Shown here: piece by piece, positions 1 to 59,609 of the stretch
Numbering within the stretch: position 1 is the first letter of the stretch
Layout: the number at the start of each line of letters is the position of its first letter
Source: Eledone cirrhosa
Lineage: Eukaryota
Reading direction: 5' to 3'
NCBI GenBank assembly: GCA_964016885.1
Contig: OZ024742.1
Location: forward strand, 329,778,001-329,842,000
Length of the DNA: 64,000 nucleotides
Position numbers and translations under genes: made by a program
Notes under the pieces: model-generated
Databases searched by the model: none
What the model was told of the DNA's origin: nothing
Seen by the model: the letters and a program-made list of their open reading frames with translations, nothing else

Positions 1-3000
1 GCCACCAGGCAGATGAAAACCGCCTGCCCTTCCTCCTCAAAGGAAGACGGCGAGACCATCTGCACAATGGACTCAGTCGACAACCGGATTAGTCCCACAC
101 GTGATAGCAACTGTTCGACATAGCTCCACAAGTCAGCAATGCTCGGGCACTGAACGAGTGCGTGCACAACGGTTTCGTCGCTATGCGCGCATCTCGGACA
201 AGATCGGCTGACGGCACTTCCGTGCCTGTAGAGCTTATCTCGAACCGGCAGCGCTCCCCGGTAGCACTGCCAGGCCAGGGATTTTTGGAAGTTATCCATA
301 GGCCCCAGGCTGAAAGTTCTCCGGAAGAGGGCAAGCAGCTGATCTTCTTCGACGCCCAGGATCTCTCCGAGAACGTCGTCGCTCTTCCCCTCCACCAGTC
401 CTGTATAGAACGCCGAGGTGGATGTTCCACCGATACTGGTGTCCAACTGGGAGAGGGCAGTGAGCGCCTGGAGACATTCCAGTTTCCAAGCGCTATCCCT
501 CGGTCCTTTTCTGACCAGGACTGCAGCTCCGTCAAGGAGACGAGCTGTGAGAAAATGTGCCTGGCGAACGGCGACCACACCCGTTCACAATCAAGGAAGC
601 ACCTGATTTATCGCAGCCTCAGTGCATGTTTGCGCATCATCAGCCATGGCATGCCCAGTCCTCCACGCAACGGATGTTGACAGCAGATGGATCGTCTGAC
701 CATGGGAGCGCGTGCCTTCCACAAAAAGCGGAAGAGGAGGCGCTCCACTTTGGTGAGAGTTGGGCTGGAGCAAGGGACGACGGTGAGGCAGTAGCAGATG
801 ACGGATGCGATGTACACATTCGCCACTTCCGCCCGGCCTTTCAGGAACAGCTTCCTCTCAGCCCATTTCTGGGTGAGGGAGGCCACACTGCTCGTCACCT
901 CGTTCCAGTTTTTCTCCATCTGGAGGTCCGGTCCGAACGAGACCCCAAGCTATTCAACCGGTCCGTCCGACCATCGCCCCACGACGCTGTCGGACGGCAT
1001 GGACTTGCCTCTCCAGGTGCCTAGCTTCAAGCCCACCGACTTTTCCTGGTTTATCTTTGCTCTTGTCACCGTTTCGTATTCCTTGAGAGCGGTGCCGAGC
1101 ATCTGGGCGTGTCTGGTGCTCGACACCACCACGGTGACGTCGTCAGCGTAAGCCGACTCAGATTTCCCGCATCCTAGTTCGCATGGGACGCCCCTCATCA
1201 CCCCCAGTTTGTTCAGTAACGGCTCGAGAGCCAATACGTACAAGAGGGACGAGAGGGGACAACCCTGGCGGACTGAGCGCATGATGCTGAACGGCTGCGA
1301 CAGGTGACCATTCACCCTCACAACTGAGCAGATGTCGCTGTACATTGCTGCGATGCAACGCCTGAAAACTGGCCCGAAACCGGCTGCCTCGAGGACCGCC
1401 GCCAGTTACCGATGGTCGACCCTATCGAATGCTTTGGATTGATCCAAGTTGATCAGGGCCCCACCCTTGCCAGGTTCCTTAACCACCCTCTCTATGATGT
1501 ATCGCATGAGGTGGAGGTTGTCGTGTATTGATCTGTCCGGGATGGCGCATGTCTGCGCCTCTCCCACCAGACCCTTGACGACAAGCGCCAACCTCGTTGC
1601 TAACACCTTGGACAAAATCTTGAACTCTGCGTTTAGCAGAGTTATGACCTGAAATTATCAATAACATCCCCCTTGTTCGGGTCTTTTCTCAGCAGCGCCA
1701 CTGCTCCCCGGCTCACAAAACTGGGAATGTTCCCGTTCTGCTGCCAGTTGCAGTAGATGTCTGCCAAGAGGTCACCGAACAAGTCTGGCATAAATGCATA
1801 AAGCTCGTATGGCAGACCATCTAAATCTGGCGATTTACCTCTTGTGCAGTTAGCCATCGCTTCCTGTATTTCACCGGCTGTTATTGGCTTTTTGCAACAC
1901 TGTGCTGCGGTCGTCGAGAGCCGAGGCAGTCCGTCGAGGTATGCACTGAAGTCCATGTCCCGATCCGGCCCGCCGCCGCTCCCGAACAGTTCAGCAAAGT
2001 CCTGCCGAAAAGCTTCACACTTCCGCTCCGGTTCAAGCATCACGCACCCGTTTTGGTCATACAAAGACCGAATTGTGGCTTTTGTTGCCACGTCGCGCCC
2101 CTGCCTCCCGGGCCCATTGGACGGCTTTTGTCCCCTCGTGTTTCAGAGCACGCGCTCTAGCTGAGACAACGCAGCCTTCGTGTTTTGCGTTGAAGAATTG
2201 GTCGAGTGCCAATCTCGCCGCAAGCACGTCGGTTGCGTTGGCTGTCCTAAACGCCTCTTCTAGCTTTCTGACTAGCCCTCTCTCTACTCTATGTTCCTCT
2301 ATCACTACTCCTTTGCTAAACCTAATCGACTCTACTTTAATAGCCCTTTTCAGGGTGAACCACCACCTGTTGTTGACGACCGCTCCCGTCAACGCCCGCT
2401 TAACTAATACGCTAATCCGGTCTCTGTAGGCCTTGCGCACCGGGAAAGACACGTTCAGCTTCCAGTAACCAGGCCCTTGTCTATGAAGTCTATGTTTGTC
2501 GATCTCACAGATCACAAATGTGTGACTGTGTAGTCGACTATTTTAAATTGTGGACAACTTATACTAGCCTTATATAGTTCCCTGCAGAATACCCTATCTA
2601 GATACGATCTGGATGACCCGATGCGGTTTGTCCATGTCCACATTGGCACATTCGGGTGATCCAGTCGATACCTGTCAGACAGTTCAAAACGTCTGAGCAG
2701 GTTGGTGAGGCTCTTGCACCCTCCTCCCCTATCCACTAGCCCCACACAATCCCAGCGTGCATCCAAGATACCGTTCCAGTCGCCCACTAACACTAAACAG
2801 CGCGACGTTCCAAGAAATGTCTCTAGACGTCTGAAGAAATCTGGCCGTCCTGCCCCTGCTGGGGCGTAGACGGCTACTAGCCTGAAAGCATTGCCTTCGC
2901 TGCCGGTCACCTCCAGCACCACCGACTTACCTTCTGGGTCCAGGAAGATGGCCCGTATCGCGAGATCCAAGCCTCTCCGAAAAAGGACGGCAACCCCTCC

Positions 3001-3200
3001 CCCCGTCCTGGACGGCTGGGAGATGCGTATACATCGTAGCCGCCGAAGATCGGTGCGAAGGCCCGTGCCTCGGAGATTCTGGTTTCACTGATGGCCACCA
3101 CATCTATGTTTAATGACCTGAGGTCATTGAGCAGGTGACCCTGCTTCCAAGATGACCCCAGGGCACGTGCATTTATACTGCCTATTCTGAGTACAGCCAT
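1..3200 (-). pseudogene. Tx1 copy A ORF2 (APE endonuclease + reverse transcriptase), disrupted
   Basis: ORF fragments: MAVLRIGSINARAL, AISET, VYAP, LVGDWN, SYLDRVF, LDQSKAFDRV, VRQGCPLS, AYADD. Several frameshifts and stops. Confidence 0.92.
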
Positions 3201-3236
3201 GTTGGATGAGAAACGGGGCAAATGAGAAAGGGTTAC

Positions 3237-5201
3237 TTACCTTTTTTGTGGTGAAGGGACAGTAGAACCGTCCCTTTCGCTGGTCATGGGTGTTTCCAAA
3301 AGGATGTCAGTGTATATCCTCTTGGTAACCGTCCCTCTGAAGTCTCCAACTGCTTTGAGGAACTTTTGTTTTAAAGGTTTGTGTTGTTCTAATGAGATTT
3401 CGATGATGCTTATGTTTGTCGGGAGAGTTCTTGGTGTTGGTGGGGTGTAGTAATTGTTTTACGTGAGGTCTGTGTGCTGCTTTATATATTTTATGAGTTC
3501 TTTTTTTGCTATGTTTATGGCTGTGTACTTTGGGGGGGGGGGGGTGATTTTGTTGCCGTTTTCCTCTTGTTTCTGTTTGGTGTGTGTGTCTTGTTGTCTT
3601 TGCGTTGTTGGTGTTTGTGGTGGTGTTGCTGCACGTTTCCTTGCTGCCTTTACCCCTCTTTGTATGCCTTCGCCTTGGGAGGGTGAATCTAAGAGTTTTT
3701 TGTTTTTTGTTTTTTGTGGCAGACTGTTTGCCACGTCACTCCCGCCTCAAACTCCATGTCGGATTCTGTGGTGTATGGGAGGGGTATGTGCTCCACGGCT
3801 GTTGGTGGTGGTAGTGGAGCCTCTTCGGCAATGTTGTTGCTGGTGTAGCTATTTCAAATGTAGCTATTGGTGTTGCCGCTACTGATGATGCTGCTTTAGT
3901 TATCCGTGGCCTTGGTACGGGTGCTATGGACGTTGCCCTCCTACGCACCGTGGAAGGGGCTTCTTCGTTTGTTGCCTGTCCTGCTCTTCGGTGTCTTCTG
4001 CGGGCAAAAGGCCCTGAGGTGACCTTTCGACCCACAGAGATAACATTTTGGCCGTCTTCCTTCTACACTTATAGGGAGTTGGAGTCCTTCCTCAAAGTCT
4101 ATGATATCGGGGATAGCCTCGATACATTCCTGGTCAGTTTGTATAAGCATTTGCATGCCTATACCTGACCAGTTCTCTCTCCCTATTTTTTCTACTTGCA
4201 GCATGGTCGCCCTGTTCTCAATTCCATCTAGGACAGACGCGGCCAGCCAAGGTATGGGCGCGTCGGGTGGGACCTGGGTCACTTTGACCCTCACAATTTT
4301 CTGCCCGCAGTAGGAGGGCACCAAGACTAACTCCTCACTCTTTCGGGTTTCCAAAGAGTGAGACTTGCTTCCTGGGGGGTGGCGAAAAGTACGTCTACTG
4401 TGGCGTACTTTCTGTCTCGGGTGATGTGGGTTTTGGTGCCCAGACGCACCCCAAGGCTTTTTGGATTTTAGCCTCCGTGGCTCTCTCCACTCGATGTGAC
4501 ATTTTGCTTATGCTGCGGTAAGTCACCGTTCGTAGCTCCTGGTCCTTGAAAAAATCGGGTGGGGGTTTCAGGGAAACTCTATTTGCGCTTCTTGCCATCT
4601 CCTCCTCTGTGACTAACACTGTCTCGATATTTCGGGCGACACCTGCAAAAGAAGTGGTCCTTTTTTCAGCAGCACTACTATTGCTGCCGCTACTGGTCTT
4701 ACTGGTGGTGCTGAGGTCGCTATTACAGGTATCGGTGTCATTGTTGTTCTTTTCGCTGGTACAGTTGTTGGTGTTGTTTTCGTTGATACTGTTGCTGCTG
4801 TTACTGTTGTTGTTATTAATGTTGTTTTTGTTGATAGTGTTCCTACTATTATTGTTGTTGTGGCTGTTGTTATTGTCATTGTTATTGTCGTTCTCGACCA
4901 TACCGCCGTTATTTTTGTTATTGTCGTTCTCGACCTTACCACTGTTATTTTTGTCATTGTCGTTCTCGACTTTACCGCTGTTATTTTTGGTGTTGTTGTT
5001 GGTGATGTTGTTGGTGTTATTGTTGGTGTTGTTTGTGTTAGAAATATTTGTTAATTTTAAATCTGTAACAATCTTTTTTTCCTTTGTAATATTTTCGTTT
5101 ATATTTACCTCAGCTGGAACGCTGTCTTGTTGACATGCTGATAAAGTCTCCCTCTCTCTGTGTTGTCTGACAGCGCTCTCTCTCTCTTTTGTGTTATCCA
5201 T
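3237..5201 (-). pseudogene. Tx1 copy A ORF1 (Asn-rich N-terminus, RRM-like region, CCHC zinc knuckle), disrupted
   Basis: caacATG at 5201; ORFs 4395-5216, 3941-4354 (CX2CX4HX4C) and 3459-3734; reading ends ...VPSPQKR* at 3237-3239. Confidence 0.85.
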
Positions 5202-5416
5202 GTTGACATTTTTCAAAAAATATTTTTACACAAATACGAATACGACACCCCGTAAAGGGATGCCGTATTATTTACTAGTGAACCCCTGTATTAGGTGGGT
5301 CACTTCTTCTAAACTTTTATCAAATTTAAAACTTGAATAAAAGGTTTAGAACGGTTGAAAAAGAGGTAAAACGTTGAAAAAGACTGGAGGCGATAAGAAG
5401 CATGGCTTCACCAACC

Positions 5417-8371: not shown

Positions 8372-8399
8372 GTGATTGATGGTAAACTCTCCCTTTCCC

Positions 8400-11180
8400 C
8401 ACAGTCCCAGTGTGCATCTAAGATCCCGTTCCAGTCGCCCACTAACACTAAAGAGCGGGACGTTCCAAGAAAAGTCTCCAGACGCCGGAAGAAATCAGGC
8501 CGCCCTGCTCCTGTCAGGGCATAGACGGCCACTAGCCTGAAAGCTTGCCCGTCTCCGCTGGTCACGTCCAGCACCACCAGCTTACCCTCTGGGTCCAGGA
8601 AGATGGCCCGTATGGCGAGATCCAAACCTCTCCGAAAAAGCACAGCAACTCCCGATCCCGGACGGCTGGGAGATGCGTACACATCGTAGCCGCCGAAATC
8701 GGTGCGAAGGCCCGTGCTTCGGAGATCTGGTATCACTGATGGCCACTACATCTATGTTTAGTGACCAGAGGTCGTTGAGCAGGTCACCCTGCTTCCATGA
8801 CGACCCCAAGCCACGCGCATTTATGCTGCCTATTCTGAGTGAGGTCATGTTTAAAATAGAGTGGAAAAGATGGGAAAGACCACTTACCGTACTTTTCGTA
8901 GAGGAGGGATGGTTTTTACATAGCTTTTCACTTCATCGTCTGGTGAAGGGACGGTTGAATCGTCCCTTCGGCTTGTCGTCGGCCCTTCTATGAGTATGTC
9001 CGAATATACTCTTCGGTTGATAGTTCCTCCTAGGTCTCTGAAATCACAAACTGCGTTGGGGAATTTCGTTTTAATGTTTGTGTATTGTTTCTGTGCTATT
9101 TTTAGCAGTCTTATATTAGTTGGCGTTTTGATTGGTGCTGGTATTATGTAGTCGTGTTGTGAAATGTCTGTGTTCAATTATGTAAGTCATTAGTTTCTTG
9201 TTTTGTGTATTTATTGCCGTGCATTTGTTTTTCTGGGGGTGGGGTGTGGTTCTGCTATTTTCTTGTCGTTGTTGCTGGGTGTGTGTGTTTTGTTGTTGTG
9301 TTTGTGATGTTGGTGCTTGTGGTGGTTGTGTTGAAGCTGTTGTTGGCGGTGGGGTTGTCGCCGGTGGTGCTGGTGGTGCTAGTGTGGGTGGTGATGGTGT
9401 TGGTGGTGTTGCTGCTGTGAGTCTCTTTGCAGTAGACTTTACCCTTTCATTTCTGTCCTCCCTTTTTAAAGGCGACGATGCGATGCTTCTGCGTTTGTGC
9501 CTTCTTACGACCTTTTGCCATCCCTCTCCCACCTCACACTCCATGTCTGATTCTGTGAGGTCGGGGAGGGGTACCAGCTCCACTCTTTCACTTGTTGTTG
9601 TTGGTGATGTTTACACTGGAGTCTCTGCTGGAGCTGCATTTGGGATTGCTGTTGTTGTTGTTAATACTTTCACTGCTGCTGCTGTTTTTGATTTCCGTGG
9701 CGTGGGTATGGGTGCCACGGACCTATTGTTCCTGGATGCCGCTTGTCCTGTTGCTGGTAGCCGTGGAGCCGGTTTCGGAAGGAGGGGGGTTTTCTCCTTT
9801 CTCAGTGTCTTCTCGTTGCAGAAGGCCCTAATGTGAGTCTTCGAACCACAGCGAAAGCATTTCGGGCGTTTGCCCTCAACACTTATGGGCAGTTGAGTGC
9901 CTTTATCGAAGTCTATCACATACGGGATAGCTTCGATGCACTCCTGGTTGGTTTGGATTAACATCTCAATGAAGGTGCCGACCCAATCTTCTCTTACTTT
10001 TTCTGTAATTGCAGTACAGCTGTTTTGTCCTCGATTCTGACGAGGACAGACGCGGCCAGCCAAGAAGCGGCCATCCCGGGGGGGGGGGACGTGGGTCAGT
10101 TTGAGCCTCACAATTTTTTGCCCGCAGTAGGAGGGCACCAACACCATTTCCTCGCTCCTTACGGTCACTAAGGATTGAGCCTTTGTCTCCTGGGGTGTGG
10201 CAAAAAGTACATCTACGGTGGCATATTTCTTGCCTCGGGTGATGTGCGTTTTCCGCTGCCACACAGACCCCAAGGCTTTTTGTATTTGAGCCTCTGTGGC
10301 TCTTTCAACCCTACGGGATTTTGTACTTACTGTACGGTACGTGACCGTACAGTGCTGTTGGGTTTCGAAAAACTTGTCCGCTGCCTTGCAGATTGCTCGG
10401 TGTCCAGCTTTTGTCACCATCTGCTTCGCTTCCTATAATTCCTCATTTATATGAGGTTGGTTTCCAGATTCTTCGCGATACCTGCAAATGAGATTGGTTT
10501 TTCTTTGCTGCTGTTGTTGTTGTTGTTGTCGTCAGAGCTGCTGTTACTTTTGTTGTTGCTGCAGGTACTACGACTACTGCCGCCGCCGCTGTTGCTGTGG
10601 TTGTTGTTGTTGTTGTTGTTGCTGCTGCTAATGCTGTTGTTGTTTATGCTGCTGTTGATGCTGTTGCGGCTGCTACTATTGTTTTCATTGTCACTGTTGC
10701 TGTTGTTATTACGGCTGCTACTGCTATTATTCCTGACGTCAGACGAATGAAATGGGTTTTCGTATTTCCCGTACACCTGTTTCGTCGTTGTTGTCGTCGT
10801 CGTGGAGAAATCTTGCACGCTTTGCACGAGCCTTTTCTTTACTGTCGTCGCTTGCGAAAGAGAAGGGAGGGAGAGAGACAATCTTCTCTCTGCTGTAGTG
10901 ACGATTGAGGAAGAAGAAGACGGAATGAGTGGGAGTGACCTATGAAAATTATTTTTCGTAGCCATGTTGTTTTTTTGTTTAAAATAAATATTGGGCACAA
11001 AACCCCAATAAGCAGTTATTTAACCCCGAAGGGCCAAATAACGGGCAGAAAGACCCCTCTCCCGAGGAGGAGGGTGTTTTTGTCTACAAGTTGGTTAAAG
11101 TTTTAAACAATTTACAATTGTTATAGCGGTCAAAATTTACAATACCTTACAGAACCAAGCCTCCGTCAACCATAGCATTC
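8400..11180 (-). mobile_element. Tx1/L1-clade element, copy B (5'UTR, ORF1 10965-8884, ORF2 from 8848, cut inside the APE domain)
   Basis: CFRCGSKTHIRAFC knuckle; MTSLRIGSINARGL...LVGDWNG; 5' end abuts (AAT)n at 11181. Confidence 0.9.
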
Positions 11181-11210: not shown

Positions 11211-14200
11211 TACCACGAATTGATTACCCCTTGGAGGATAAGGATAAAACGGGACAAAGTAAAGTAAATGTCAAATGATAAAATCTCATACCGGATCGGC
11301 CGTCACCCGGGTTAAAAATGGCCGCGTCCCTCAGAGAGGAACCAGATTGGGGTCGAACAATCAGCTCATGGTTCAAACCTTCCCATCACTTCGGAGCTGG
11401 AGACCTCCTATAACCGGAATACTCCTACTGTTGGCCCTCCATGCTCACCACCAAGAAATGCAAAGAAAAAAGAGAAAAATTGTCAAAGGAAGATAAAAAA
11501 GTCCTTGAGACTTTCTACACTGCCATGTACTACCCATGAAAACATCGAATATAGAACAGACATATATCAACTGGAAAAAGAAACATCCCGAAAACAGAGT
11601 CTATATTGACAGTAACAAACTAGCCAATATAAGAAGAAATATTGTTAAAAAAAGTTACTATCTGATATAGAAATTGATCAGATCAAGCTATTAGCGCAAA
11701 GTCAGCGAAGGGAAAATGAAACATGTGTAAGCGAAAACGAGGTAAATTGTAACACTTCGAATCCCAGGGTTGGGGCGGTATCACTGACAACAGAACAAAT
11801 TAAAGAAAGGATCGATAAAGTGGAGGGATTACATGCTGAAGATGAAACTCAAAATGAAAACAATGAGATCATAAATGATAAAGAAATGAATGAGAATGAA
11901 CTTACCAACTTGAAGGATGAAATTATGATCGAATGGATGAAAATGAAAGAATCTGACATGGGGGAAAAGAGACACCCTCCCTAAGATCCAGAACTCCGAA
12001 CAGAAACAAAAGATAATACACAAGACTAACATAATTCACAAAAACATTATCATCACATACAAACTAAACATGACTGATTTAAATCATCTCTATTATGCTT
12101 CGGGTAAATCATCACTCACTTATGTGGAGTGAAAATGAAAAAAGAAAGGAATTCCAACAAAAAATCTACTTGGCAAGAGAACATATATCGCCAAATAAAC
12201 CTTCTCCGATCTGACATAGAAATGTTAACAAACTACAAAGTAGGTGAACATGTTAAACAAACTAAACTTAGAAAATTGAAAAGAAAATACAGTATAAAAT
12301 CAACAAGTGACATAGACATGCTGATAGAAGTAATCAAGCAAAAAGTGTCGGCCAAAGCTGCTCGTATAAGGCGCTTTGAAAAACGATCTAGATTCTATAA
12401 GGACAATAATATGTTCAAAAACAACCAAAGAAATTTCTACAGAAAAATTGGCATGTCTACAATAACTGCTAAATCAATACCACCCAAGCAGGAAGTGCAA
12501 GAATTCTGGGAAAAGATCTGGGCCGGAGAAAAATTTCATAATATACATCTCCCATGGATAGTAGACAAATGAAAGATACAACTCACCTTGAGGAACAAAC
12601 ATGGGAAAATATAACAGTTGAACAGTTGCGCTTGGCTCTTAGAAAAACCAGCAAATGGAAATCCACAGAAAATGCCAAAATACCAAATTGTTGGATAAAT
12701 GCCTTCACAGAGTCTCATGAGCTGTTAGCCCAACTTTACAATGAAATAGTTAAGGAGCCAGAAAAGATACCATCATGGCTAGTTAACGGCATTACATTCC
12801 TGCTTCCGAAGAATGATGAGACAAACAATCCCAAAAATTACTGATCGATAACTTGCTTGACCACAATGTATAACATTTTAACATCAGTCCTAAATGCATA
12901 TACATATGATCATCTGATAACAAATGACCTATTTCGCAATGAGCAGAAAGGGTGTAAACGAGACTCATATGGCTGTAAGGACCAGCTTTTGGTTAACAAA
13001 ATGATACTGGAAGATTGTCATAATAGACACAAAAATCTATCAATTGCTTGGATAGATTATAAAAAAGCATTCGATAGTTTGCCAGACAGTTGGATTAAAA
13101 CATGTTTAAAGATTTTCAAAATATATCCCGTTGTCAGGAGGTTCTTGTCATTCAGTATGAAGACATGGAAAACGACACTCCTTTTGAATAGTGAAAGAAA
13201 AATCACTGGAAGCTGGAGAAGTTAATATTAATTGTGGAATTCTTCAGGGTGATTCTTTATCACCGCTTTTATTCTGCATCGCACTTACACCATTAAGTAA
13301 AATGCTCAATGAAACAAAACATGGATATAAAGTCTATGACAAAACCATTAATCACTTGTTCTACATAGATGACCTGAAACTATTTGCAAAAAATGATGAA
13401 CAATTGCAAGGGCTATTATCCACTGTGGACAGTTCAGTGATGACATTAAAATGGAGTTTGGACTAGATAAATGCGCCAAAGCAACGCTCACCAGAGGAAA
13501 ACTGCTGAAAAGTTCAGACATTAATCTTGATCGGGGGAATTTGATAAGAGAACTTGATAAGAGGAAACTTACAAATATCTAGGTGTTTGTAAAGGAGACG
13601 GAATCAAGCACTCGACAATGAGGTAAAGGATAAGGAAGGAATGTTACCGCAGAATTGAATGCAAGGAATAGGATCGATGCCATAAAAACGCTTGGCATAC
13701 CTACAGTTACAAAGTCATCAACTGGTCCAGCACAGAGATCCGTAGGCTCAATTAGATATTACGTTGAAAACTGCAACAATGGGATTATCAACATATCTAA
13801 GGGAATCACAACATTGGATGATCAAACTCGTTTTGAAACACGAAAGCATCAAAAGATCATACTCCATTACAAAAGATGCACAACGATGCAGTAATGGACT
13901 ACACATTTCAGAAGTCCCATTTACTGCTGATATGGAAAACACAGAAAAAGCAAAGCAGGTAAAAGTAACTGCAAAGAAATAACTGCTACAGAAACTGGCT
14001 AAGAAATGGCAAGAAAAGCCTATGTATGGAAAATACCCAGAAAGAGCTAACAATCCTGATGTTGACAAAACTTTAACCCATCAGTGGTTGGCATCCTCTG
14101 GACTGAAATCGGAGACCGAAGGACTGATTATTTCAGCACAAGATCAGTGTCTGCCAACAAAGAATTACCAAGCCAACATAATAAAAAATGGATGCAGCCC

Positions 14201-14895
14201 ATTATGCCAGAGACCATTGATCATATATTTTCAATGTGCAGTCCTATAGCTCCTGCCGAATACCTAAACAGGCATGACAGAGCTGCACAATACATACATT
14301 GGATAATGTGTAAGCATTTTGACCTGCCCCATCAAAAGAATTGGTGGGAGCATCAACCACCTCCCATACTTGAAGAAGATCACATCTCAATTTTGTGGAA
14401 CTTTAGCATCCAAACAGACCGAACAATAGATGCAAATAGAGCTGATATAATACTGGAGGACTTTAAAAAGAGGGTATGCCTGCTAATTGATATGTCCGTT
14501 CCAATAGACAAGAATGTATCTATAAAAACATTTGAAAAATTGAGCAAGTATAAGGACCTGGAGATAGAAATTGGAAAAATGTGGAAATTGAGAACTAAAA
14601 CAATACCAGTGGTTGTAGGCGCTCTAGGAATGATACCTAAGGGGTCTAATGATTACTTATCGCAAATCCCAGGAAACCCGCGTATAGGAGAAATACAAAA
14701 GATAGTACTAATGGGAACTTCCCATATACTAAGGAAGATTCTTTCAATATAAGTACATCACAAGTCTAAACAGCTAAAGATGCATGTGTGTGTATGTATG
14801 TTCTTTCTTGAACATGGCGGACCTTGTTGTCTCTTGAGGTCACTGGTTGTGACTTGGTGATAACTCGTATGAACATAAGGCAAGATAAATGCACC

Positions 14896-14896: not shown

Positions 14897-14934
<38 letters not shown>
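14897..14934. repeat. (TAA)n shared as 3' tail by R4 copy 2 (+) and Tx1 copy C (-)
   Basis: Directly visible between the two 3'UTRs. Confidence 0.97.
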
Positions 14935-14935
<1 letters not shown>

Positions 14936-15178
14936 TTTTCTTTATTAACCACAAGGGTTTACATAAAGTAGACATTAAGGACAGTACAGGACAATACAGG
15001 ACGGTACAAATGGGCATTTCTGAGTGTAAAAAAAACAGAGGATGAAATAGAATAACAAAGAAAAATTCCCCAACAGGGGGGAGACTTCCTAGGGACATTT
15101 GTGGAGAAAGCCGATTAAAAAACCACAGTGAACGTGACCACCAGTGCAAGTGCCCTATCCCAGTTTTCCACCCTTAAT

Positions 15179-18100
15179 TTACAGACACATACTCAGAGAA
15201 GGCCCATTCATTCGGGCCATACTTGCTTCTCTCACCCATCTTTCAACAAAATGCTTGGAAGCCAGCACTTCCCTCTCTACCCTGATTTTCCTTTTCAAAT
15301 GAAATTTGAAAAAGTTAATCAGGGCATCACCGAAGAGGTAAGTGCTCGTCTTCAGCCCTTTCAAACGTGTCCACCATACTATCTCTTTCGCCATGGCCAC
15401 CAGACAGATAAAAACTGTCTGCCCTTCCCGGCTAAAGGAAGACGGCGGGGCAATCCTCACGATGGACTCAGCTGATAGCTGGATCCGTCCTACACGTGAC
15501 AGCAGGTGTTCGACATAAACCCACAAGTCAGCAATGCTCGGACACTGGCCGAGTGCGTGCAGGACGGTTTCGTTGCCCTGTGCGCATCTCGGACATTCCC
15601 GACTGACGGCACCTCCATGCATGTAGAGTTTATCCCGAACTGGCAAAGCTCCCCGGTAGCACTGCCAGGCCAGGGATTTCTGGAAGTTGTCCATAGGCCC
15701 CGGCCCGAAAGTCCTTCCCAAGAGATTGGCTAGTTGATTTTCGTCGACGCCTAGAGTTTCTCCAAGTACGTCGTCGCTCTTCCCCTCCACTAATCCCCTA
15801 TAGAACGCCAAGGTGGAGTTTCCACCGATCATATTGCCCGATTGGTCAAGGGTTGTGACCGTCTGAAGACATTCCAGTCTCCAAGCGCTCCGTCTCGGTC
15901 TTCGCTTGACCCAGGACTGCAGCTCTGTCAAGGAGACGACCTGGGAAAAAACGTGTCTAGCAAACGGTGACCACACCTGATCACCGTCGAGGAAGAGGTG
16001 GAGATGTCGTAGCCTGAGCGCGTGTCTGCGCATCATCAGCCACGGCATGCCCAGCCCTCCACGTAGCGGGTGTTGACAGCAGATGGACCGCCTGACCATT
16101 GGAGCGCATCCCTTCCACAAAAAGCGAAAGAGCAAACGCTCCAGCGCAGTCAAGGTACGACTGGTCAGATGACGGACACGATGTACGCGTTAGCCACCTC
16201 CGCTCGACCTTTCAGGGATAGATTCCTCTCCGCCCATTTCTGGGTGAGAGAAGCCACCCTGCTCGTCACCTCGTCCCAGTTTTTGTCCGTCTGGAGATCC
16301 GGACCGAACCAGACCCCAAGCAATTTAACCGGTCCGTCCGTCCAGCGCCCGACGACGCTGTTGGACGGCATGGACCTGCCTCTCCAGGTGCCGAGCTGCA
16401 GGCCCACTGACTTTTCCTGTTTGATCATTGCTCCTGTCACCGCTTCGTATTCTCTTAGTGTAGTGCCGATCGCCTCGATGTGTTTGGCGTTCGACACCAC
16501 TACGGTGACATCGTCCGCATATGCTGACACGGATCTTCCGCATCCTAGTTCGCGCGGGACCCCCCTCAACGTCTCCAGTTTGTGTAGTAATGGCTCGAGA
16601 TTCAATACGTACAATAGGGACGAGAGGGGACATCCTTGGCGGACCGAGCGCATAATGTTGAACGGTTCCGAAAGGTGACCGTTCACTCTCACTACAGAGC
16701 ACATGTCGCTGTGCATGGCAGCGATCCAGCCTCTGAAGACGAGCCCAAAGCCAGCCGCCCTCAGGACTGCCGCTAGGTAACGATGGTCGACCCTATCGAA
16801 GGCTTTCGACTGATCTAAATTGATCAAAGATCCACCCGTGCCAGGTTCCCTAGCTACCCTCTCTACTATGTATTGCATGAGGTGGAGGTTGTCGTGGATC
16901 GATCTGTCGGAAATGGCGCATGTCTGTGCCTCTCCCACCAGACCACCATCGACAAGCGCCAACCCCTTTGCTAGCACCTTGGCCAAAATCTTGAACTCTG
17001 TGTTTAGCAGAGTTATGGGCCTAAAATTATCTATGTTATCCCCCTTGTTTGTATCCTTTCTCAACAGCGCCACCGCTCCTCGGCTCACAGAGCTGGGAAT
17101 TTTCCCGTTCTGTTGCCAGTTGCAGTAGACGTCCGCCAAGAATCCTCCGAACAAGTCTGGCATTTGTACGTAAAGTTCATAGAGCAGACCATCCAAACCA
17201 GGCGCTTTACCCCTTGTGCAGCCAGTCATTGCCTCACGTACTTCAGCGGTTGTTATCGGCTTTTTGCAACACTCCGCCTCAGTGGCCGAAAGCCTCGGCA
17301 GTCCGTCGAGGTAAACACTAAAGTCCATCCCTCGAACCGGCCCGCCACTGCCCCCGAACAGTTGAGCGAAGTGTCGCTGAAAAGCTTCACACATTTGCCC
17401 GGGATCGAGTAGCATGCGCCCGTCGTGGTCCACCAAAGACCGGATCGTGGCTTTGTTGCCACGACGCGCCTCCGCCACTCGGGCCCATTGAACGGCTTTC
17501 GTCCCCTCGTGTCTGAGAGCAAGCACCCTAGCTCTGACAACGCAGCCTTCGTGCTCTGCATTGAAGAAATGGTCAAGGGACAATTTCGCCGCAAGTACGT
17601 CGGTCGCGATGCCTTTGCGAAGCGCCTCGTCTAATTTTCTAACAAATTCTCCCTCTGCTCTATTTTTCTCTATTGCTAAAGCCTTACTAAACCTAATGGA
17701 CTCTATTCTAATAGCTCTTTTCAGAGCAAACCACCACTTGTTGTTGACGATGGCCCCCGTCAACGCCCGCTTAACTAGTTCGCTAATCCGGTCTCTGTAG
17801 GCCTTGCGCGCTGGTAAGGACGCGTTTACCTTCCAGTAGCCGGGTCCTCGTCTATGAAGCCTATCTAATTCAAGCACACAGATCACGAATTTGTGGTCCG
17901 TGTAGCTGACTATCTTGAATTGTGGACAGCCTATGCTAGACCTATCTATTTCTCTACAAAATACTCTATCTAGATATGATCTGGATGACCCTATGCGATT
18001 TGTCCAAGTCCACATTGGTACATTCGGGAAATCCATTCGGTACCTGTCAGAAAGTTCAAAACGCCTGAGCAGGTTGGTGAGACTCTTGCACCCTCCTTCG

Positions 18101-18573
18101 CTATCCACTAATCACACACAATCCCAGCGTGCATCTAAGATCCCGTTCCAGTCGCCCACTAACACTAAAGAGCGGGACGTTCCAAGAAAGGTCTCCAGAT
18201 GCCGAAAGAAATCAGGCCGCCCTGCTCCTGTCGGGGCATAGACGGCCACTAACCTGAAAGCTTGCCCGTCTCCGCTGGTCACGTCCAGCACCACCAACTT
18301 ACCTTCTGGGTCCAGGAAGATGGCCCGTATGGCAAGATCCAAACCTCTCCGAAAAAGCACAGCAACTCCTCCCCCCGATCCCGGTCAGCTGGGAGATGCG
18401 TACACATCGTAGCCGCCGAAGATCGGTGCGAAGGCCCGTGCTTCGGAGATTCTGGTCTCGCTGATGGCCACTACATCTATGTTTAGTGACCTGAGGTCGT
18501 TGAGCAGGTGGCCCTGCTTCCATGACGACCCCAAGCCACGCGCATTTATGCTGCCTATTCTGAGTGAGGTCAT
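15179..18573 (-). pseudogene. Tx1 copy C ORF2 (APE, RT, C-terminal CCHC), about three lesions
   Basis: ORFs 18385-18573, 18112-18360, 16165-18108 (647 aa; NFRPITLLN, QGCPLS, YADD) and 15179-16153 (CPRC..ETVLHALGQC). Confidence 0.93.
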
Positions 18574-18607
18574 GTTGAAAAGGGGTGGAAAAGATGGGAA
18601 AGACCAC

Positions 18608-20489
18608 TTACCTTACTTCTCGTACGGGAAGGACGGTTTTTCCATCCTTTTCACTGCTTGTGGCCTCCTCAGGAAGGATGTCCTTATAAATCCTCCTGGA
18701 GAGTGTTTGTCGGAAGTCTCCGATGTCTTTGGGGAATTTTTGTTTTAGTGTCATGTACGTTTTCTGTGTGATGCGAGTGATTTGTATGTGTGGAGGTGGT
18801 GTGAACCTTTGGGTTGTTGTGTAGTCTTTTTCTGTGATGTTGGATGTAGTGTAATAATTGGTTGTTGTTCAAATTTAATGCTGTGTAGTGTGTATCGTTT
18901 TGGTTGTTTTGTTTTGTTAGCGTTTGTTGTGGGTTTGTTTCTATTGCGCTTTTTGGTGACTTTTGTGATGTTGGGGTTAATGATGGTGATAGTGTTGGTG
19001 TTTGTGATGCTGGTGTGGATGGTGGCATATCTGTCCTAACCTTTTTGTTTGATAGTTTATTGTTTCCCTCTGTATATTGTTTTTGGAGGGGAGGTGAAGA
19101 GAATTTTTTTTTTTGTTTTTTTTTTCTTTTTTCCTGATACCGTTTCCCACTCCTCGTCGTCACAATCTGTCTCCAGTTGTGATAAGCCAGAGAGTTGAAA
19201 ATCCTCCACAGGCGTTGGTTTTGATTGGGGCGTGGTGGATGGTGTAGGCGCTGGTGCTAGTTCTGGCGCGTTGGGTGGTGGTGGTGTTGGTTTTGCTACT
19301 GTTGCTGGGGTTGTTGCTGTTACAATTTCTTCTGTTGTTGCTGCTACATTTATTGCTGCCATCTCTGCTGCTGGTGGTGTTGATCGTTGAGTCACTGGGT
19401 TGGGTAAGAGAGGTGGCCTCAACCTTTTAGCCTGAGGGCAGAAAGCCCTTAGGTGGGTTCTTTCACCAGAAACGACACACCTAGGCCTTCTGCCCTCGAC
19501 GATTACGGTGAGGTGGCTGCCGTCAGTGAGGTCTATTACCTCTGGGATCTCCTCAATGCTTTTATCGTCTGCTTCGATCAGGTGCTTCATCCCAGATGCG
19601 TACCAGTACTCCTGATTTTTTTCTTTCGCTATTTCGATTATCTTGGTGTTGGCCTCGATGCCGGCGAGGACGGCAGCCATTAGCCAGGGAATTTCGATGG
19701 CCGGTGGAACGTGGGTCACCCTGATCTTCACGAGTCTCTGGCCACAATAGCTTGGGATGAGTGTGAAGTCGTCACTTCTTAATGGGGACATGGAGTGTTC
19801 TCTGGCCTCCTGTGCTGTTTCAAAGAACACGTCCACGGTTCCATATTTCTGCCCACGGCTGATGTGGGCTTTTTTTGCCCACACATCTCCCAAACCTTTT
19901 TGGATTTGGGACTCGGATGCCCGTTCCACTCGGCACGATTTTATGTTAATCGTCCGATAAGTCACGGTGCATAGGCGACGATGGTCCATTTTGTTAGGTG
20001 TGTGTGTGTGGGGGGTGACCCTGTACCCATATTTCTTTACCATTCCTTTGGCTTCTTCTAATTCCTCCTGAGTTACTTGGATCGCTTCGCACGTTTTTGG
20101 TACTCTCGCAAAAGACGGTAGTTTTCTTAATTTCATTGTTGCTGTTGTTGTTATCGTTATTATTGTTATTGTTAATTTTAGTTTCAGTTGTGGGGGTGGT
20201 GGTGTCAGTGGTGTCGGTGTGGAAGAGTTCATTTCGATATCACGAGATAAATTATGTTTTTCTTTTGTTTCTGTTGTCGGTGTGGTGGCGGGGGGGGGGG
20301 TGCTTTATCACCTGCAGTCATTGGTAATGGCGGGAAATGAATGTCTGCATGAGGTAAATTTAAAATATTGCAACAGCTCATATTTTTAGTCTTGGCAAAC
20401 GTAGTAATATTTACAATGGTGGTGTCGGTGTGAGGTGTTAGTTTGTGAGGAAGGCTCTCGGCTACTTGGTGCAGCTGTGAGTCAGCCAT
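18608..20489 (-). pseudogene. Tx1 copy C ORF1, frameshifted
   Basis: ORFs 20229-20489, 19057-20232 (TVTYRTI, HISRGQKYGTVDVFF, CVVSGERTHLRAFC) and 18684-19163; ends ...PVREVR*. Confidence 0.85.
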
Positions 20490-20707
20490 GATTTTCTTAA
20501 AGCAATTTTTTTTTTTTTTTATAATTATAAAAATTTAAATTTTGGGCACAAGGCACCAATCCTTTTGACTGTCCTTTTCAGAAAAAAATGTATGTGCACT
20601 TATATACAGCTAACAATAAAAATGTTCCATAAATGGCAATTGTAAAGAACTGAAAATAACAAACCTTTGCGGAGCTCACGATAATATGATTTACTAAGTA
20701 GGTCGCC

Positions 20708-21024: not shown

Positions 21025-22350
21025 CAGCAATCTCAGCAAGAAGAACCAAACACTACTCCGCAACAACAACAGCAAATACAACGAAAAGACACTACACACA
21101 ATTAAACATTAGCAATAATCATTTACGCCATTATATGCAACACAACGAAATAAATAACACCCCAGGAAATCGTACCACCCACACTTATAAACAAGATACC
21201 TGAGCACATACATACAAATAAAAACAGAAATTTCCCAAATTCAACTGGGGACTTCGATGGGATCATATCAAGAAGAATACATAGAGACATTATTGAAAAA
21301 GACCCCAAACAGACCAGAAGGTTGACGCTACCCGTGCTTCCTTCAAAGGTATAGGTAAGTGAATGTTCCCAGTTCTCCCACTCTTTATTCAACCTCGCCT
21401 TACACAAAATAGGCAGCTGAAATGCACGTAGCCTGGGCATGTCATTGAAGCAAGGCCACTTGCTCAAAAACCTCACGACAATGAACATAGGTGTGGTGGT
21501 CATCACCGAGTCCAGTATTTTTGAGGCACAAGCATTTGCACTCATTTTCCGTGGCTACGAGTTCTACGCATCACCAATCCATTAGGGATCTGAAGGCGGA
21601 TGTGAAATGTTATTTCGGAAAAACCTGGATCTTACGATACGGACCATCTTCTTGGACCCAAAAGGTAAGTTGTTGGTGATGCTGGATGGGACCAGCAGTG
21701 ACTGCTAACGCTTGCAGGCTAGTGGGTGTCTATGCCCTACATAGGCAGGACGGTCTGATGTCTTCAGGCACCTTGAGACCTGTCTATGTCAATCACGCAC
21801 TTAGTTGTTAATGGGTGACCGGAAATGTATTTTAGACGGATACTTGAAATCCGATGCACTAGCCGATAAAGGAAGAGGGTGTAAAAGCCTCACAAATCTG
21901 CTCATACCTTTTACAATTGTCTGACAGACACCGATTCGATTTCCTGTATGTGCCATTCTGTGCATGGCCAAACAACCTCCGGTGATCCAGATCGTATCTA
22001 GATAGGGTTTTGTTATAGGGAGGTAGATATGGTTAGTACAAGCTGTCCACATTTCAAAATAGTCAACTACACAGCCCCCATATTTGTGATCTGTACAGTC
22101 GACTTAGATAGGCTTCATAGACAGGGTCCTAATTACTGGAAGATAAACACATCCTTTCCTCTCGCGCAAGGCCTACATAGACGGGATTAGGAAATTCGAT
22201 AAGAGGGCATTGACGGGAGCAATTACAACAATGGATTTTGCTTTGTCCTGAAAAGAGCAGTTAGAATTAGTAAAGCAGTAGCAATAAAAAAGTAAAAAAA
22301 TAAGAAATAGATTAGAAGTTACGCTAGTTAGAAAGAAAGAAGTAAGTAGG
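20753..22350 (+). mobile_element. Tx1/L1-clade fragment, copy D (3' half of ORF1 plus APE region), old and degenerate
   Basis: EGKWQTVKKK; GDFDGIISRRIHRDII; nucleotide similarity to the ORF2 start of copies A-C (aagcaaggccacttgctc, atcttcttggacccaaaaggtaag, agatcgtatctagatagggt). Confidence 0.85.
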
Positions 22351-32882: not shown

Positions 32883-32999
32883 TCCTTCCAGTGTTGAACA
32901 AAAGGGCAATGGTTTCCGAACATGGTACGGCTACTAATTCGGGCTGTTTGTTTTCAAACAAACCGAGCATTATAATAAATATTCGGTAAAGCTATACGT

Positions 33000-33040
<41 letters not shown>

Positions 33041-33174
33041 CATGTAAAGTTATATTTAAAATTGTTGGGTTACAACTAGTAAATATTTATAACTGATATA
33101 AAAGCACTCGACAAATATTTGGAGTATATTTACAATATTAAATAAATGGAAAACTATATTTATAAAACCATATC

Positions 33175-33240
33175 TATTTCATTATATATATTTCGGGGAT
33201 ATCATATTAACAATATGCTATGCCTTCATCAGACAAAATA
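33175..33240 (-). ncRNA. Type I hammerhead in the inverted PLE repeat
   Basis: Reverse complement of 36442-36507. Confidence 0.72.
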
Positions 33241-34069
33241 CAATATAAACAGATTATAGATAAATAGATTCGACATACCGTAATAACACCGACTTCATTT
33301 GAAGAGGTTTACGCTGGCAGTGAAAATTTTATACAGAGAGAAAGAAAGAGAGAAAAAAGAGAGAAAAAAAGAAAGAAAGAAACAACGAAGAAAAGGAAGA
33401 AAAAGAAGAAAAAAAAAGAAAAAGAAGAAATGCACGGAACAAAATAGAGAGATGGAAAGATAGATAAAGCGAAGAACTTCATGTAAAGAAACAGAAAGAG
33501 AGATATATATATATAGAGAGAGGAAATAGAGATAGATACATATATATATAGAAAATTAGGTAGTGGGAGGTCATTTTGAGTAAGTGTATCAATGATACAT
33601 TTATTTATTTATTTATTTATTTAGCTCAGGTATTAATGTAAGGGAGATATATATAAAGAGAAAAAAATATAGAGAGAGGAAAAATAGCGAGAGAAAAAAT
33701 TTAAAAATAGCCAGACATATTCGAGGCGTAAAAAACCCTATGTTTTAATGTATTAGTATTTATAAAACTTACACTATATTGTAAATATCAGTATTCCTGA
33801 ATGAGACAAGTATCCATAATGTGTGAAAATTAATTATCTTATGTTTAGTTTTAAAAAATTCATATGTGACAGCTACAAACATCCATGCGAATCCAACTGA
33901 TTCACTCTGCAAACTCTAAGTTCACGGAAAACAATCTCAATGTGGTATAAAAATTTGAGCGTATTATTATTCCTGTCATTACTCTACAAGATTATCTATC
34001 AAGCAGAAATAGAGAGCAGATTTCAATATACTAATAAAAATATATATTATATAATAAACAAACACTATA

Positions 34070-34978
34070 GTAAACTCAGTCCAAAAACGTATCTCTAGGA
34101 TCTCGTCGAATAGAAAGATTTTCGACGAAAAGGCCCAGTACTATAATGATGCACTAGCTAGGGCCGGATATGCTGATAAGATTGTGTACATAGATAATGA
34201 TAGACAAACTAAACAAAGTAACAACTTTTTTAATTACGGCAACAACATTAACAACTATAATAGAAAGCATTACAATAATTCCAAAGGACAAATAAGAAAT
34301 AGAACTAGGAACATAATTTGGTTTGCCCCCTCTTTCTCACTAAACATTAAAACCCACATCGCTAAATTATTTTTCAAAGCTCTTGATAATCGCTTCCCTA
34401 GAACACATAGGTATCACTCAATCTTCAATAGGCATACAATTAAAATAACCTACTCATCCACAAAAAATTTAGCACAAAATATTAATAGAATAAATAATAG
34501 GAACTTAAAACCTACTGATAATAGCATAAATAATATACAAGTTAACAAATGTAACTGTAGAGATAGATCTAAATGTCCGTTAAATAACAACTGCTTAGTT
34601 AAAAATATAGTATACAATTGTAATGTTAATACTGACTCTAATTCTTTTAACTACGTCGGTTCCACATCGACGGAATTTAAACTTCGCTATAATAACCACA
34701 AGAATTCTTTCACAGATCCAAGTAAAAAATCTTCAACGGCACTATCAGGCGTACTCTGGCAACTTAAGCTAGATAACGTTAGGTATTCGACGGCTTGGAA
34801 TATAGTCTCAAGAGGGATTCCTTTTAATTCATCTTCTGAGACATGTGACCTCTGCACAGAGGAGATATTCTTTATACTAAAATCTAAAAATTCCCTTAAC
34901 CTACGGACAAATTTATTCAGTTGTTGCAAACATAGATTAAACTCAACGTTTAAATATAAATTTAAATTTAAAATGTAG
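34070..34978 (+). CDS. C-terminal part of PLE polyprotein: RT thumb/linker plus GIY-YIG endonuclease (no start codon)
   Basis: KRISRISS..YYNDAL..GY; IIWFAPSFS; HSIFNRHTIKITYS; CNC..CPL..C; IVY..YVG..FKLRYNNH; CDLC..E..LN..CCKH. Confidence 0.88.
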   Translation, partial: VNSVQKRISRISSNRKIFDEKAQYYNDALARAGYADKIVYIDNDRQTKQSNNFFNYGNNINNYNRKHYNNSKGQIRNRTRNIIWFAPSFSLNIKTHIAKLFFKALDNRFPRTHRYHSIFNRHTIKITYSSTKNLAQNINRINNRNLKPTDNSINNIQVNKCNCRDRSKCPLNNNCLVKNIVYNCNVNTDSNSFNYVGSTSTEFKLRYNNHKNSFTDPSKKSSTALSGVLWQLKLDNVRYSTAWNIVSRGIPFNSSSETCDLCTEEIFFILKSKNSLNLRTNLFSCCKHRLNSTFKYKFKFKM

Positions 34979-36441
34979 TATATTTAGTTTGATTTATATT
35001 TATATGGGAAACTAGCCGATAAATTTTTTGATTCCTAAATTTTTGATTCCCTCTTTTTACTCTTTTTTTTTATTGTTTATTTTTTTTTAATTTTATTTTT
35101 ATCTAAACATTCCTCATGAAAAATTAAGCTACCCTAAAAGCTGATGCTCCAAATTTTTTGAATTAACCTTACACTAGATAAACTTCTATATTAAATATAA
35201 GAACATATGTAGACCTAATTTGACATCATAATCTTTTTGAAATGATCTTTGCTAGATGTGATTTGATAGATAATTTTTGGCTTTGTCTTGTAATGAACTT
35301 GGCAATATATTGTCAATTAACTTTGAAGGGTTGTTCTTTGTGGTTTATTTTTATTTTTATTTTTATTTTTATTTTTATTTTTATTTTTTTTACTATTGTA
35401 GTATTCTATAATATTTCTTATTTTGTATTTTTAATATCTTTAATATGTAAATTTATAATACGTAATATTTTTTAATACGTAGTATTTTTAATATGTAATA
35501 TTTTTATTATGTAATATTCTTTCGTAATATTTTTTTTTTTTTTTTTTTAGTTTTCTATTCTATATTTTTACTTATTATTATTATTATTCTTATATTTTAA
35601 TTTTTAGTTTTGTTTATAATATAATATATATTTTTATTAGTATATTGAAATCTGCTCTCTATTTCTGCTTGATAGATAATCTTGTAGAGTAATGACAGGA
35701 ATAATAATACGCTCAAATTTTTATACCACATTGAGATTGTTTTCCGTGAACTTAGTTTGCAGAGTGAATCAGTTGGATTCGCATGGATGTTTGTAGCTGT
35801 CACATAAACATATGAATTTTTTAAAACTAAACATAAGATAATTAATTTTCACACATTATGGATACTTGTCTCATTCAGGAATACTGATATTTACAATATA
35901 GTGTAAGTTTTATAAATACTAATACATTAAAACATAGGGTTTTTTACGCATCGAAAATGTCTGGCTATTTTTAATTTTTTTCTCTCGCTATTTTTTCCTC
36001 TCTCTATATTTTTTTCTCTCTATATATATCTCCCTTACATTAATACCTGAGCTAAATAAATAAATAAATAAATAAATGTATCATTGATACACTTACTCAA
36101 AATGACCTCCCACTACCTAATTTTCTATATATATATGTATCTATCTCTATTTCCTCTCTCTCTATATATATATATATCTTTCTGTTTCTTTACATGAAGT
36201 TCTTCGCTTTATCTATCTTTCCATCTCTCTATTTTGTTCCATGCATTTCTTCTTTTTCTTTTTTTTCTTCTTTTTCTTCCTTTTCTTCGTTGTGTCTTTC
36301 TTTCTTTTTTTCTCTCTTTTTTCTCTCTTTCTACAATTTTCTCTCTGTATACAATTTTCACTGCCAGCGTAAACCTCTTCAAATGAAGTCGGTGTTATTA
36401 CGGTATGTCGAATCTATTTATCTATAAAACTGTTTATATTG

Positions 36442-36507
36442 TATTTTGTCTGATGAAGGCATAGCATATTGTTAATATGATATCCCCGAAATATATATAA
36501 TGAAATA
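36442..36507 (+). ncRNA. Type I hammerhead in the PLE 3' repeat
   Basis: tattttgt CTGATGA aggcatagcatatt gtt aatatgatatcccc GAAA tatata TA atgaaata. Stem I has G-U pairs; stem II is imperfect. Confidence 0.72.
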
Positions 36508-36554
36508 GATATGGTTTTATAAATATAGTTTTCCATTTATTTAATATTGTTAAT

Positions 36555-36663
<109 letters not shown>

Positions 36664-36845
36664 AGTATGTGTGTGTGTGTGTATGTGTGTGTGCGTGTGT
36701 GTACATGTATGTATATACATACTAGTGTACGCATGTATACATATATGTATGTACGTATACAAACTTATATATAAGTATCAGCCGCACTAAGAGTGAGAAA
36801 TGAAATTTCATTTTTTCCGTTCATATATATACATATATATATATG

Positions 36846-59432: not shown

Positions 59433-59436
<4 letters not shown>
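56450..59436 (-). mobile_element. Penelope-like element (Naiad-type), 5'-truncated at (TA)n; RT and GIY-YIG disrupted
   Basis: YITLKDHK, CRLINPAK, QFDIVDFYPSI, MGSYDSADVCDLVG, GLYRDDGL, VDFLDI, HPP; then IVY..YVG, CTLC..EK, LNTKTE..CCPH (stop at 57657). Extent of the 3' region is approximate. Confidence 0.88.
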
Positions 59437-59522
<86 letters not shown>

Positions 59523-59586
59523 AATGAAGTAATTCCGTCGGAAAAGTCCAGGAACAAAGAGTGCTCTATGTAGGTAACAGAGCTTA

Positions 59587-59609
59587 ATAGTTATGTAATA
59601 TTACATAAC

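Follow-up and report, generated by a model that had tools for sequence, protein, structure and literature searches.

A conserved 5′ splice-site-like motif at the end of ORF1 in a Tx1-like LINE family of Eledone cirrhosa: a candidate U1 site rather than a micro-intron

Introduction

When a LINE carries a consensus 5′ splice site exactly where its first reading frame ends, is the site there to be spliced? The question is raised by a window of 64,000 nucleotides from Eledone cirrhosa (assembly GCA_964016885.1, contig OZ024742.1, positions 329,778,001–329,842,000 of the forward strand), which holds four copies, A to D, of one LINE family. A first-pass annotation of the window placed donor motifs at 3240 (−, AG|GTAAGT), 8887 (−, CG|GTAAGT), 18611 (−, AG|GTAAGT) and 21355 (+, AG|GTAAGT), all of which match the sequence letter for letter. 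It placed the ends of the first AGs past the donors of copies A, B and C at 3187, 8835 and 18560, giving spans of 54, 53 and 52 nt, and read AA at the acceptor position of copy D; these observations are also confirmed. From them it proposed a micro-intron whose removal would take out the stop of ORF1 together with the ATG of ORF2 and join the two proteins.

The matter reaches beyond one locus, as it bears on two questions: by what means A-rich LINE RNAs without introns avoid premature polyadenylation and surveillance, and what sets the ratio of ORF1 to ORF2 products. Here, we place the four copies within their family across the genome, follow the motif through its subfamilies and weigh the explanations for it. 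Because the motif occurs in three reading frames and no spliced genomic copy was found, a U1 site is a likelier account than a tiny intron.

The LINE family and its genomic distribution

In the 3.0-Gb genome around the window, copies A, B and C each represent a young, high-copy subfamily (best 40 matches 96–99% identical). About 11,000 copies genome-wide carry the ORF1–ORF2 junction of the family. Pattern matches to the start of ORF2 number 5,645 for the A/B/C type and 5,256 for a second type that includes G/H/J, and the spacer of subfamily E alone has 328 exact matches. From the loci that were fetched we defined 12 subfamilies (A, B, C, E, G, H1, H2, H3, I, J, K and L) and two old copies of a further group, F.

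The element is ~5.8 kb long. Intact copies have a 5′UTR of ~200 nt, an ORF1 of ~640–730 codons with a CCHC knuckle, a short spacer and an ORF2 whose 1139 residues include endonuclease, RT and zf-RVT domains (PF03372, PF00078 and PF13966). The 3′UTR ends in AATAAA and a simple-repeat tail, and LTRs are absent. An ORF2 that combines an APE-type endonuclease, RT and a C-terminal zinc-binding domain, with a separate CCHC-bearing ORF1, is the arrangement of L1/Tx1-type non-LTR elements. Judged by the 5′ ends and tails of the loci read, the family also has the microsatellite target preference of the Tx1 clade: subfamilies A, B, C, E and I are inserted at (ATT)n, and H, J, K and L at (CTAT)n. The Tx1 label given in the first-pass annotation thus agrees with domain order and targeting, and its basis is this anatomy and that annotation rather than a comparison with named reference elements; protein searches with the element returned no named reference sequence among their matches.

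Copies lie in head-to-tail arrays with a period of ~5.8–6 kb, which would arise if the tail of each copy serves as a new target site. Arrays reach 10 full-length copies with a period of ~5840 nt (G000:C1:423365548-423418086; C1:55427326-55453263; C1:26573005-26590648), and arrays of mixed subfamilies are sorted by target into an (ATT)n group and a (CTAT)n group. Apparent chimeras between subfamilies were seen at L247, L248 and L177, in which, for example, a B/C-type 3′ end follows an I-type junction or a B-type spacer follows a C-type ORF1 tail. In the L167–L170 array, a fragment of another retroelement lies antisense, flanked by the (ATT)n tracts of two units. Copy C of the window has a similar reading frame beside its tail, at 14066–14752. 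The two together suggest a second (ATT)n-targeting family.

Copies in the window

Copy A occupies 1–5415 (−), with its 5′ end at 5415 by an (ATT)n tract; its ORF1 is broken and its ORF2 runs from 3200 off the window. The 5′ splice-site consensus AG|GTAAGT at the end of ORF1 lies at 3235–3242 (−, donor G at 3240) and is in phase 1 in the subfamily. A pyrimidine-rich spacer follows at 3201–3234 (−), ending in CAAC before the ORF2 ATG (3200–3198). The first AG past the donor, at 3187–3188 (−), forms bases 1 and 2 of the Arg codon of LRIGSIN, and a splice to it is out of frame in subfamily A.

Copy B (8397–11180, −) starts at an (ATT)n tract and comprises the 5′UTR, ORF1 and the first ~450 nt of ORF2, the 3′ part being missing. 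Its donor-like site, CG|GTAAGT at 8882–8889 (−), contains the ORF1 stop and is in phase 2, and its ORF2 ATG is at 8848. Copy C (14899–20707, −), lying between (ATT)n tracts, is full-length at 5.8 kb and has a 5′UTR, ORF1, spacer, ORF2 (RT and zinc-binding) and a 3′UTR that ends in AATAAA and an (ATT)n tail; its ORF2 is frameshifted. The donor-like site AG|GTAAGT, again in phase 2 with the ORF1 stop inside, is at 18606–18613 (−) and the ORF2 ATG at 18573. Copy D (21344–22267, +) is an old, decayed junction and endonuclease region, 70–73% identical to the young subfamilies and with relatives in the genome of only 73–80% identity. It keeps AG|GTAAGT at 21353–21360 (+) and has lost both the ORF2 ATG and the AG.

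Elsewhere in the window, reading frames at 34058–34978 (+), 58496–59590 (−) and 32996–36686, one of them in a 1.1-kb inverted repeat of 93% identity, presumably belong to Penelope-type (GIY-YIG/RT) elements, and a frame at 60329–60799 (+) resembles what we take to be a mariner-type transposase fragment.

Reading frame of the donor across subfamilies

The proposed fusion depended on the donor of copies A, B and C lying always 2 nt into a terminal Arg codon. This does not survive a wider comparison, as subfamily A is in phase 1 and the 12 subfamilies span all three phases. All 29 further copies of subfamily A that were read (L032–L060) have an ORF1 that ends in HEQ-GK and a stop, read as HEQ G|GT AAG TGA, so that the donor follows the first base of a Gly codon and the TGA stop follows GTAAG. 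The PQKR tail read in copy A is not the state of its subfamily: the copy looks phase 2 because of a private 2-nt deletion just upstream of the donor. Measured from an upstream anchor, the donor lies at 25 nt in all but one of 32 distinct A copies, the anchor being absent in that one; window copy A, which is outside this set, has 23 nt. Read from the sequence, the proposed splice in subfamily A gives one Glu codon and then TAG.

Subfamilies B and C are in phase 2 (30 and 59 informative copies). Over the whole family, phase 2 is found in eight subfamilies (B, C, G, H1, H2, H3, K and L), phase 1 in three (A, E and I) and phase 0 in J; the vote was ambiguous for K and I, both of which were assigned by conserved homology of the ORF1 tail and by intact copies. 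At least two phase changes are needed on a midpoint-rooted ORF2 tree, with the motif retained throughout. As B and C are near-sisters (96% identical in ORF2) and A is 84% identical to both, the three window copies are not independent evidence. Once distant subfamilies are included, the donor is, on comparison of the sequences, beyond chance.

Conservation of the motif

Across the 12 subfamilies AG|GTARGT is near invariant from −2 to +6, which is the footprint of U1 pairing. With columns anchored on the motif itself and group F (two old copies, AG|GTAAAG) excluded, −2 is A in 11 of 12; G at −1, G at +1, T at +2, A at +3, G at +5 and T at +6 are found in all 12; and +4 is A in nine and G in three. 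The flanks vary, the best letter reaching only 6/12 at −3 and 8/12 at +7. Among fourfold-degenerate ORF2 sites in the same subfamilies, 37 of 168 (22%) are invariant, which for the four motif positions outside the stop codon gives 0.22 to the fourth power, or 0.002. Part of the conservation could be at the protein level, given that the stop occupies +2 to +4 in eight subfamilies and an Arg or Gly codon supplies −2 to +1. The motif is nevertheless retained in A, E, I and J, where the ORF1 stop no longer lies inside it. In all 12 the stop is 3′ of the donor, at a motif-to-stop distance of +2, +6 or +37, and a pyrimidine tract follows the motif at about +9 to +25.

By a simple pairing score, no sense-strand site along the ~5.8-kb element pairs better with U1 than the motif does in 10 of the 12 subfamilies, B and K being the exceptions. 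Chance donors turn up in ORF2 as well, 10 against 6.8 expected. A conserved hairpin over the motif was considered and rejected, since its register differs between subfamilies and only 2 of 13 folds have z < −3.

More distant relatives were sought in metagenomes. One scan yielded 80 loci, mostly 21–38% identical (one short segment 47%), and another found none. Of the 20 distant L1/Tx1-like loci whose ORF2 start is in or near view, one has GTAAGT in the 130 nt before ORF2, the ORF1 stop lying beyond those 130 nt in five. As these loci are without the motif, it looks lineage-specific. In the literature searched, from which most subscription journals and Repbase reports are absent, we found no description of a conserved donor at a LINE ORF1 end.

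Acceptors and spliced copies

Compared by subfamily, the donor motif is kept in 12 of 12, and the CAG acceptor is not conserved. The distance from donor to first AG ranges from 36 to 61 nt. A splice to that AG is in frame in eight subfamilies and out of frame in A, E, I and J. The first AG is AAG in 7 of 12 subfamilies, and it is AAG rather than YAG in six of the eight in-frame ones. In phase 2 the match of frames is automatic, because this A and G are positions 1 and 2 of the Arg codon within L/I-R-I/V-G, the conserved beginning of the endonuclease. Of the marks of a U2-type intron, the 5′ splice-site consensus is present and a conserved YAG acceptor with conserved phase is absent.

The first-pass annotation called for a search for intronless copies. 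Among ~10,000 ORF2 starts we found no precisely spliced copy. The exact spliced junction of the A/B/C type has no match against 5,645 A/B/C-type starts. A pattern with the donor side left open, joined to the A/B/C acceptor, has 14 matches, none spliced from the ORF1-end donor: 12 retain the spacer with small changes, and two have other upstream sequence that ends at neither the ORF1-end nor the 5′UTR donor. On G/H/J-type starts, put at ~4,400 copies because the body of the pattern fits 25 of 30 sampled loci, the open-donor test gives two matches, a truncation and a 2-nt deletion, neither of them spliced. Conversely, the B/C exon end followed by non-intron bases, a test that detects ~56% of possible junctions, has 11 matches and none is spliced; 10 are small indels or substitutions and one is a microhomology deletion without AG. 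The last, L261, was considered as a donor junction and rejected, as the deletion is at an ACGT microhomology. Retrocopies in which the 5′UTR donor is spliced to the ORF2 start, as an ORF2-only mRNA would leave, were also sought and not found among either A/B/C or G/H/J copies.

Spliced human L1 RNAs do leave copies: SpIREs are reported to make up ~2% of full-length L1 (PMC5860796). The absence of spliced copies is strong evidence against a fusion mRNA, since cis copying is expected of an RNA encoding ORF2p, and only slight evidence against an ORF1-only mRNA, since an RNA without ORF2 would be copied only in trans.

Contigs from sequencing runs X5, X4 and X6 (run kind unconfirmed as RNA) on 18420–18780 show no joint among those listed and cross the donor unspliced. 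Contigs drop rare forms, and these comparisons, which for X1, X4, X5 and X6 also extended to copy C, are not used as evidence. Run X5, unlike X1, has 100–300x more depth near an internal A-tract of ORF1 (window 18830–19570) than in ORF2, and on copy C its depth also peaks at the 3′ end; the pattern is probably one of oligo-dT capture, the kind of run being unconfirmed.

Subfamily J and translation of ORF2

Subfamily J, which makes up 5 of the 30 loci fetched from second-type ORF2 starts, differs from the rest at the border. In 9 of 9 copies read, ORF1 continues through the motif for 12 more codons, and ORF2 has, in place of ATG, an ATA that overlaps the ORF1 TAG. J copies were read at L219, L221, L230, L232, L233, L236:4004 and L243:3728 and 9442. 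ORF2 is broken in the three J copies checked, and no in-frame AG occurs up to 30 nt into it. A run of A before the J ORF1 stop could also permit a −1 slip.

In L1, ORF2 is reported to be translated by unconventional termination-reinitiation, and SART1 and L1 use cis signals for it (PMC5972666). By analogy, ORF2 of the present family is likely made in the same way. The AUG-less ORF2 of J would then offer a natural test of AUG-independent reinitiation outside mammals.

Other signals in the element

A second donor-like site, GTRAGT or GGTAGG followed by U-rich sequence, lies ~30–95 nt from the 5′ end in E, I, H1/H2, H3, J, K and L. It is weak in B and absent from the A and C copies seen, and the 5′UTR of G is outside the set. 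The 5′UTRs diverge between subfamilies yet mostly keep GTRAGT (e.g. L236–L241, L243 and L248, and ~11150 of the window in copy B). Segments of the H (~68 nt) and J (~60 nt, with CACTAAC) 5′UTRs have the look of whole short introns that the copies seen have retained. The leaders of B and H have a short ATG frame whose stop is inside the 5′UTR donor and which is in phase for an ORF2-only mRNA.

The final 700 nt of ORF1 contain 16 AATAAA sites where 8.8 are expected, and ORF2 contains three where 6.1 are. AATAAA lies ~315–345 nt upstream of the ORF1-end donor in B, E, G, I, J and K, and is present in 5 of 32 A copies and 0 of 2 L copies. This excess in the 3′ part of ORF1 is small and the subfamilies are not independent, so it is only suggestive; it may reflect Gln-Ile-Lys codons.

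Distant acceptors were also sought, and none is conserved in ORF2 or the 3′UTR across subfamilies. A textbook acceptor (long U tract, CAG) is found in the 3′UTR of A, B and C (window ~15020–15050, −) and is absent from E, H, J, K and L. In ORF2, a TAG with pyrimidine-rich upstream sequence occurs at codon ~137–138 in all 12 subfamilies; its position falls within a hydrophobic strand, outside the windows that rank highest for synonymous constraint. A hairpin-like CCCC-TATT-GRGG motif and TGTAAAC before AATAAA are common to most subfamilies.

What the motif may do

As a family-wide mechanism, the micro-intron is largely refuted, and we consider it highly unlikely. In its favour, a splice to the first AG keeps the frame in two-thirds of the subfamilies, and in the three phase-1 subfamilies (A, E and I) a later TAG, at 59, 53 and 58 nt, is in frame. 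The latter is expected by chance where there are several AGs to choose from, and the phases and spliced-copy searches above speak against it. The introns would be 36–42 nt in six subfamilies; as a point of comparison from another host, a threshold of 65 nt is reported for human short introns (PMC4463651). Subfamily J, which without an ATG has the greatest need of a fusion, offers no acceptor for one. It is also very improbable that the motif has no function and persists through shared ancestry and stop-codon constraint. This would suffice for copies A, B and C of the window alone (84–96% identical), and TAA or TAG accounts for three of the eight letters. The two target groups, however, are only ~70% identical in ORF2 and ~40% at fourfold sites, the columns beside the motif vary freely, and the motif outlasts the loss of the stop within it.

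Two alternatives that grant the motif a role are more serious, though each seems unlikely to us. A working donor could be spliced to a distant acceptor, in ORF2, the 3′UTR, the next tandem copy or the flank, and yield an ORF1-only mRNA; the frame is irrelevant to such an RNA, since only a short new tail would be added. The pyrimidine tract downstream of the motif, which we take to resemble a donor-side enhancer, is in keeping with this, as are the position of the ORF1 stop 3′ of the donor in every subfamily, the acceptor in the 3′UTR of A, B and C, the TAG in ORF2 and the precedent of the Ty1/copia element EVD, for which a gag-only mRNA is reported (PMC5580714). Against it, the 3′UTR acceptor is missing from five groups, the ORF2 TAG lies in a hydrophobic strand and outside the windows of highest synonymous constraint, and the B/C exon-end matches include none that is spliced, a weak test where copying would be in trans. 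The other alternative, which we hold to be rather improbable, is that a translation-coupling signal, a site for a DNA-level factor or an internal promoter merely resembles a donor. The motif does sit in the stop–restart region, 25–47 nt before the ORF2 ATG, short hairpins are possible over it in several subfamilies, and cis reinitiation signals are reported for SART1 and L1 (PMC5972666). The human L1 5′UTR donor, reported to be kept as a RUNX3 site (PMC5860796), indicates that a donor-like motif can persist for a DNA-level reason. Yet the distances from motif to stop and from motif to ATG both vary, the hairpins share no register, and the only changes tolerated (A/G at +4, A/C at −2) are those that a 5′ splice site tolerates. 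Copies that start at the spacer, moreover, are few: 1 of 30 among second-type loci (L222) and none among the A/B/C-type loci listed.

Our preferred reading, held with slightly less than even confidence, is a binding site through which U1 snRNP, with no splicing locally, would shield the full-length RNA, ORF2 being made by reinitiation. The first-pass annotation had named a U1-binding site without splicing as its fallback, and this suggestion fits the wider data and is the best explanation of a U1 footprint that is independent of frame. The perfect 5′ splice-site sequence and pyrimidine tract at the end of ORF1 would bind U1 snRNP in any frame. The bound U1 would not be spliced to a nearby acceptor and would guard the full-length RNA from early cleavage or termination, possibly at the AATAAA sites of its A-rich second half of ORF1. 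Ribosomes would then reinitiate at ORF2 after the ORF1 stop. Donors in retroviruses are reported to suppress a poly(A) site that lies upstream of them. In Arabidopsis EVD, U1 at the donor that ends gag is reported to repress premature termination (PMC5580714), and an unspliced 5′ splice site to block Restrictor-mediated attenuation (PMC12211998). The Restrictor precedent concerns promoter-proximal sites, whereas the LINE motif is 2 kb into the RNA, and this counts against the U1 reading, as do the chance donors in ORF2, the smallness of the AATAAA excess, the RUNX3 case in L1 and the lack of the motif in distant L1/Tx1-like elements. The parts of the mechanism are already known; its placement at the end of a LINE ORF1 may be new.

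We can also imagine, as a doubtful extension of the U1 reading, that two landing sites, at the 5′ end and at the ORF1–ORF2 border, let an intronless LINE pose as host pre-mRNA, the border site switching between full-length and ORF1-only RNA and so setting the ORF1p:ORF2p ratio. The ORF1-only RNA would either end at an AATAAA ~320–345 nt upstream or arise by splicing to a distant acceptor. In practical terms, a frame-independent 5′ splice-site footprint conserved near synonymous saturation offers a target of 8 nt, open to direct test by mutation and U1 rescue, and the ~11,000 junction copies would scatter strong donors through the host genome.

Comparison with known systems

The model behind the micro-intron proposal is the LTR retrotransposon Ogre, in which an intron removes stop codons in gag-pol. 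Splicing out stops to fuse reading frames requires a fixed phase and an acceptor, neither of which the present family has.

Among LINEs, the Tx1 elements Kibi and Koshi are alike in having two ORFs, microsatellite insertion and tandem arrays (PMC4494074), and the family shares with Tx1 elements an ORF2 of endonuclease, RT and zinc-binding domains and a CCHC knuckle in ORF1. Its targets are (ATT)n and (CTAT)n, those reported for Kibi and Koshi (TC)n or (TTC)n (PMC4494074), and no ORF1-end donor of Kibi/Koshi-type elements surfaced in the literature searched. Human L1 is reported to have a conserved, rarely used donor, a short inter-ORF spacer and an ORF2 likely made by reinitiation (PMC5860796; PMC5972666), all of which resemble the situation here. 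Its donor is in the 5′UTR, is explained by RUNX3 and leaves spliced copies (PMC5860796), while that of the present family is at the end of ORF1 and none was found.

EVD, the Arabidopsis Ty1/copia element, has LTRs, an intron that has been demonstrated and a poly(A) site coupled to it (PMC5580714); the LINE described here, known from its sequence, has neither a conserved acceptor nor a poly(A) signal in early ORF2. What the two have in common is a conserved U1 site that ends the structural gene, proposed in EVD to act as a suppressor of termination (PMC5580714).
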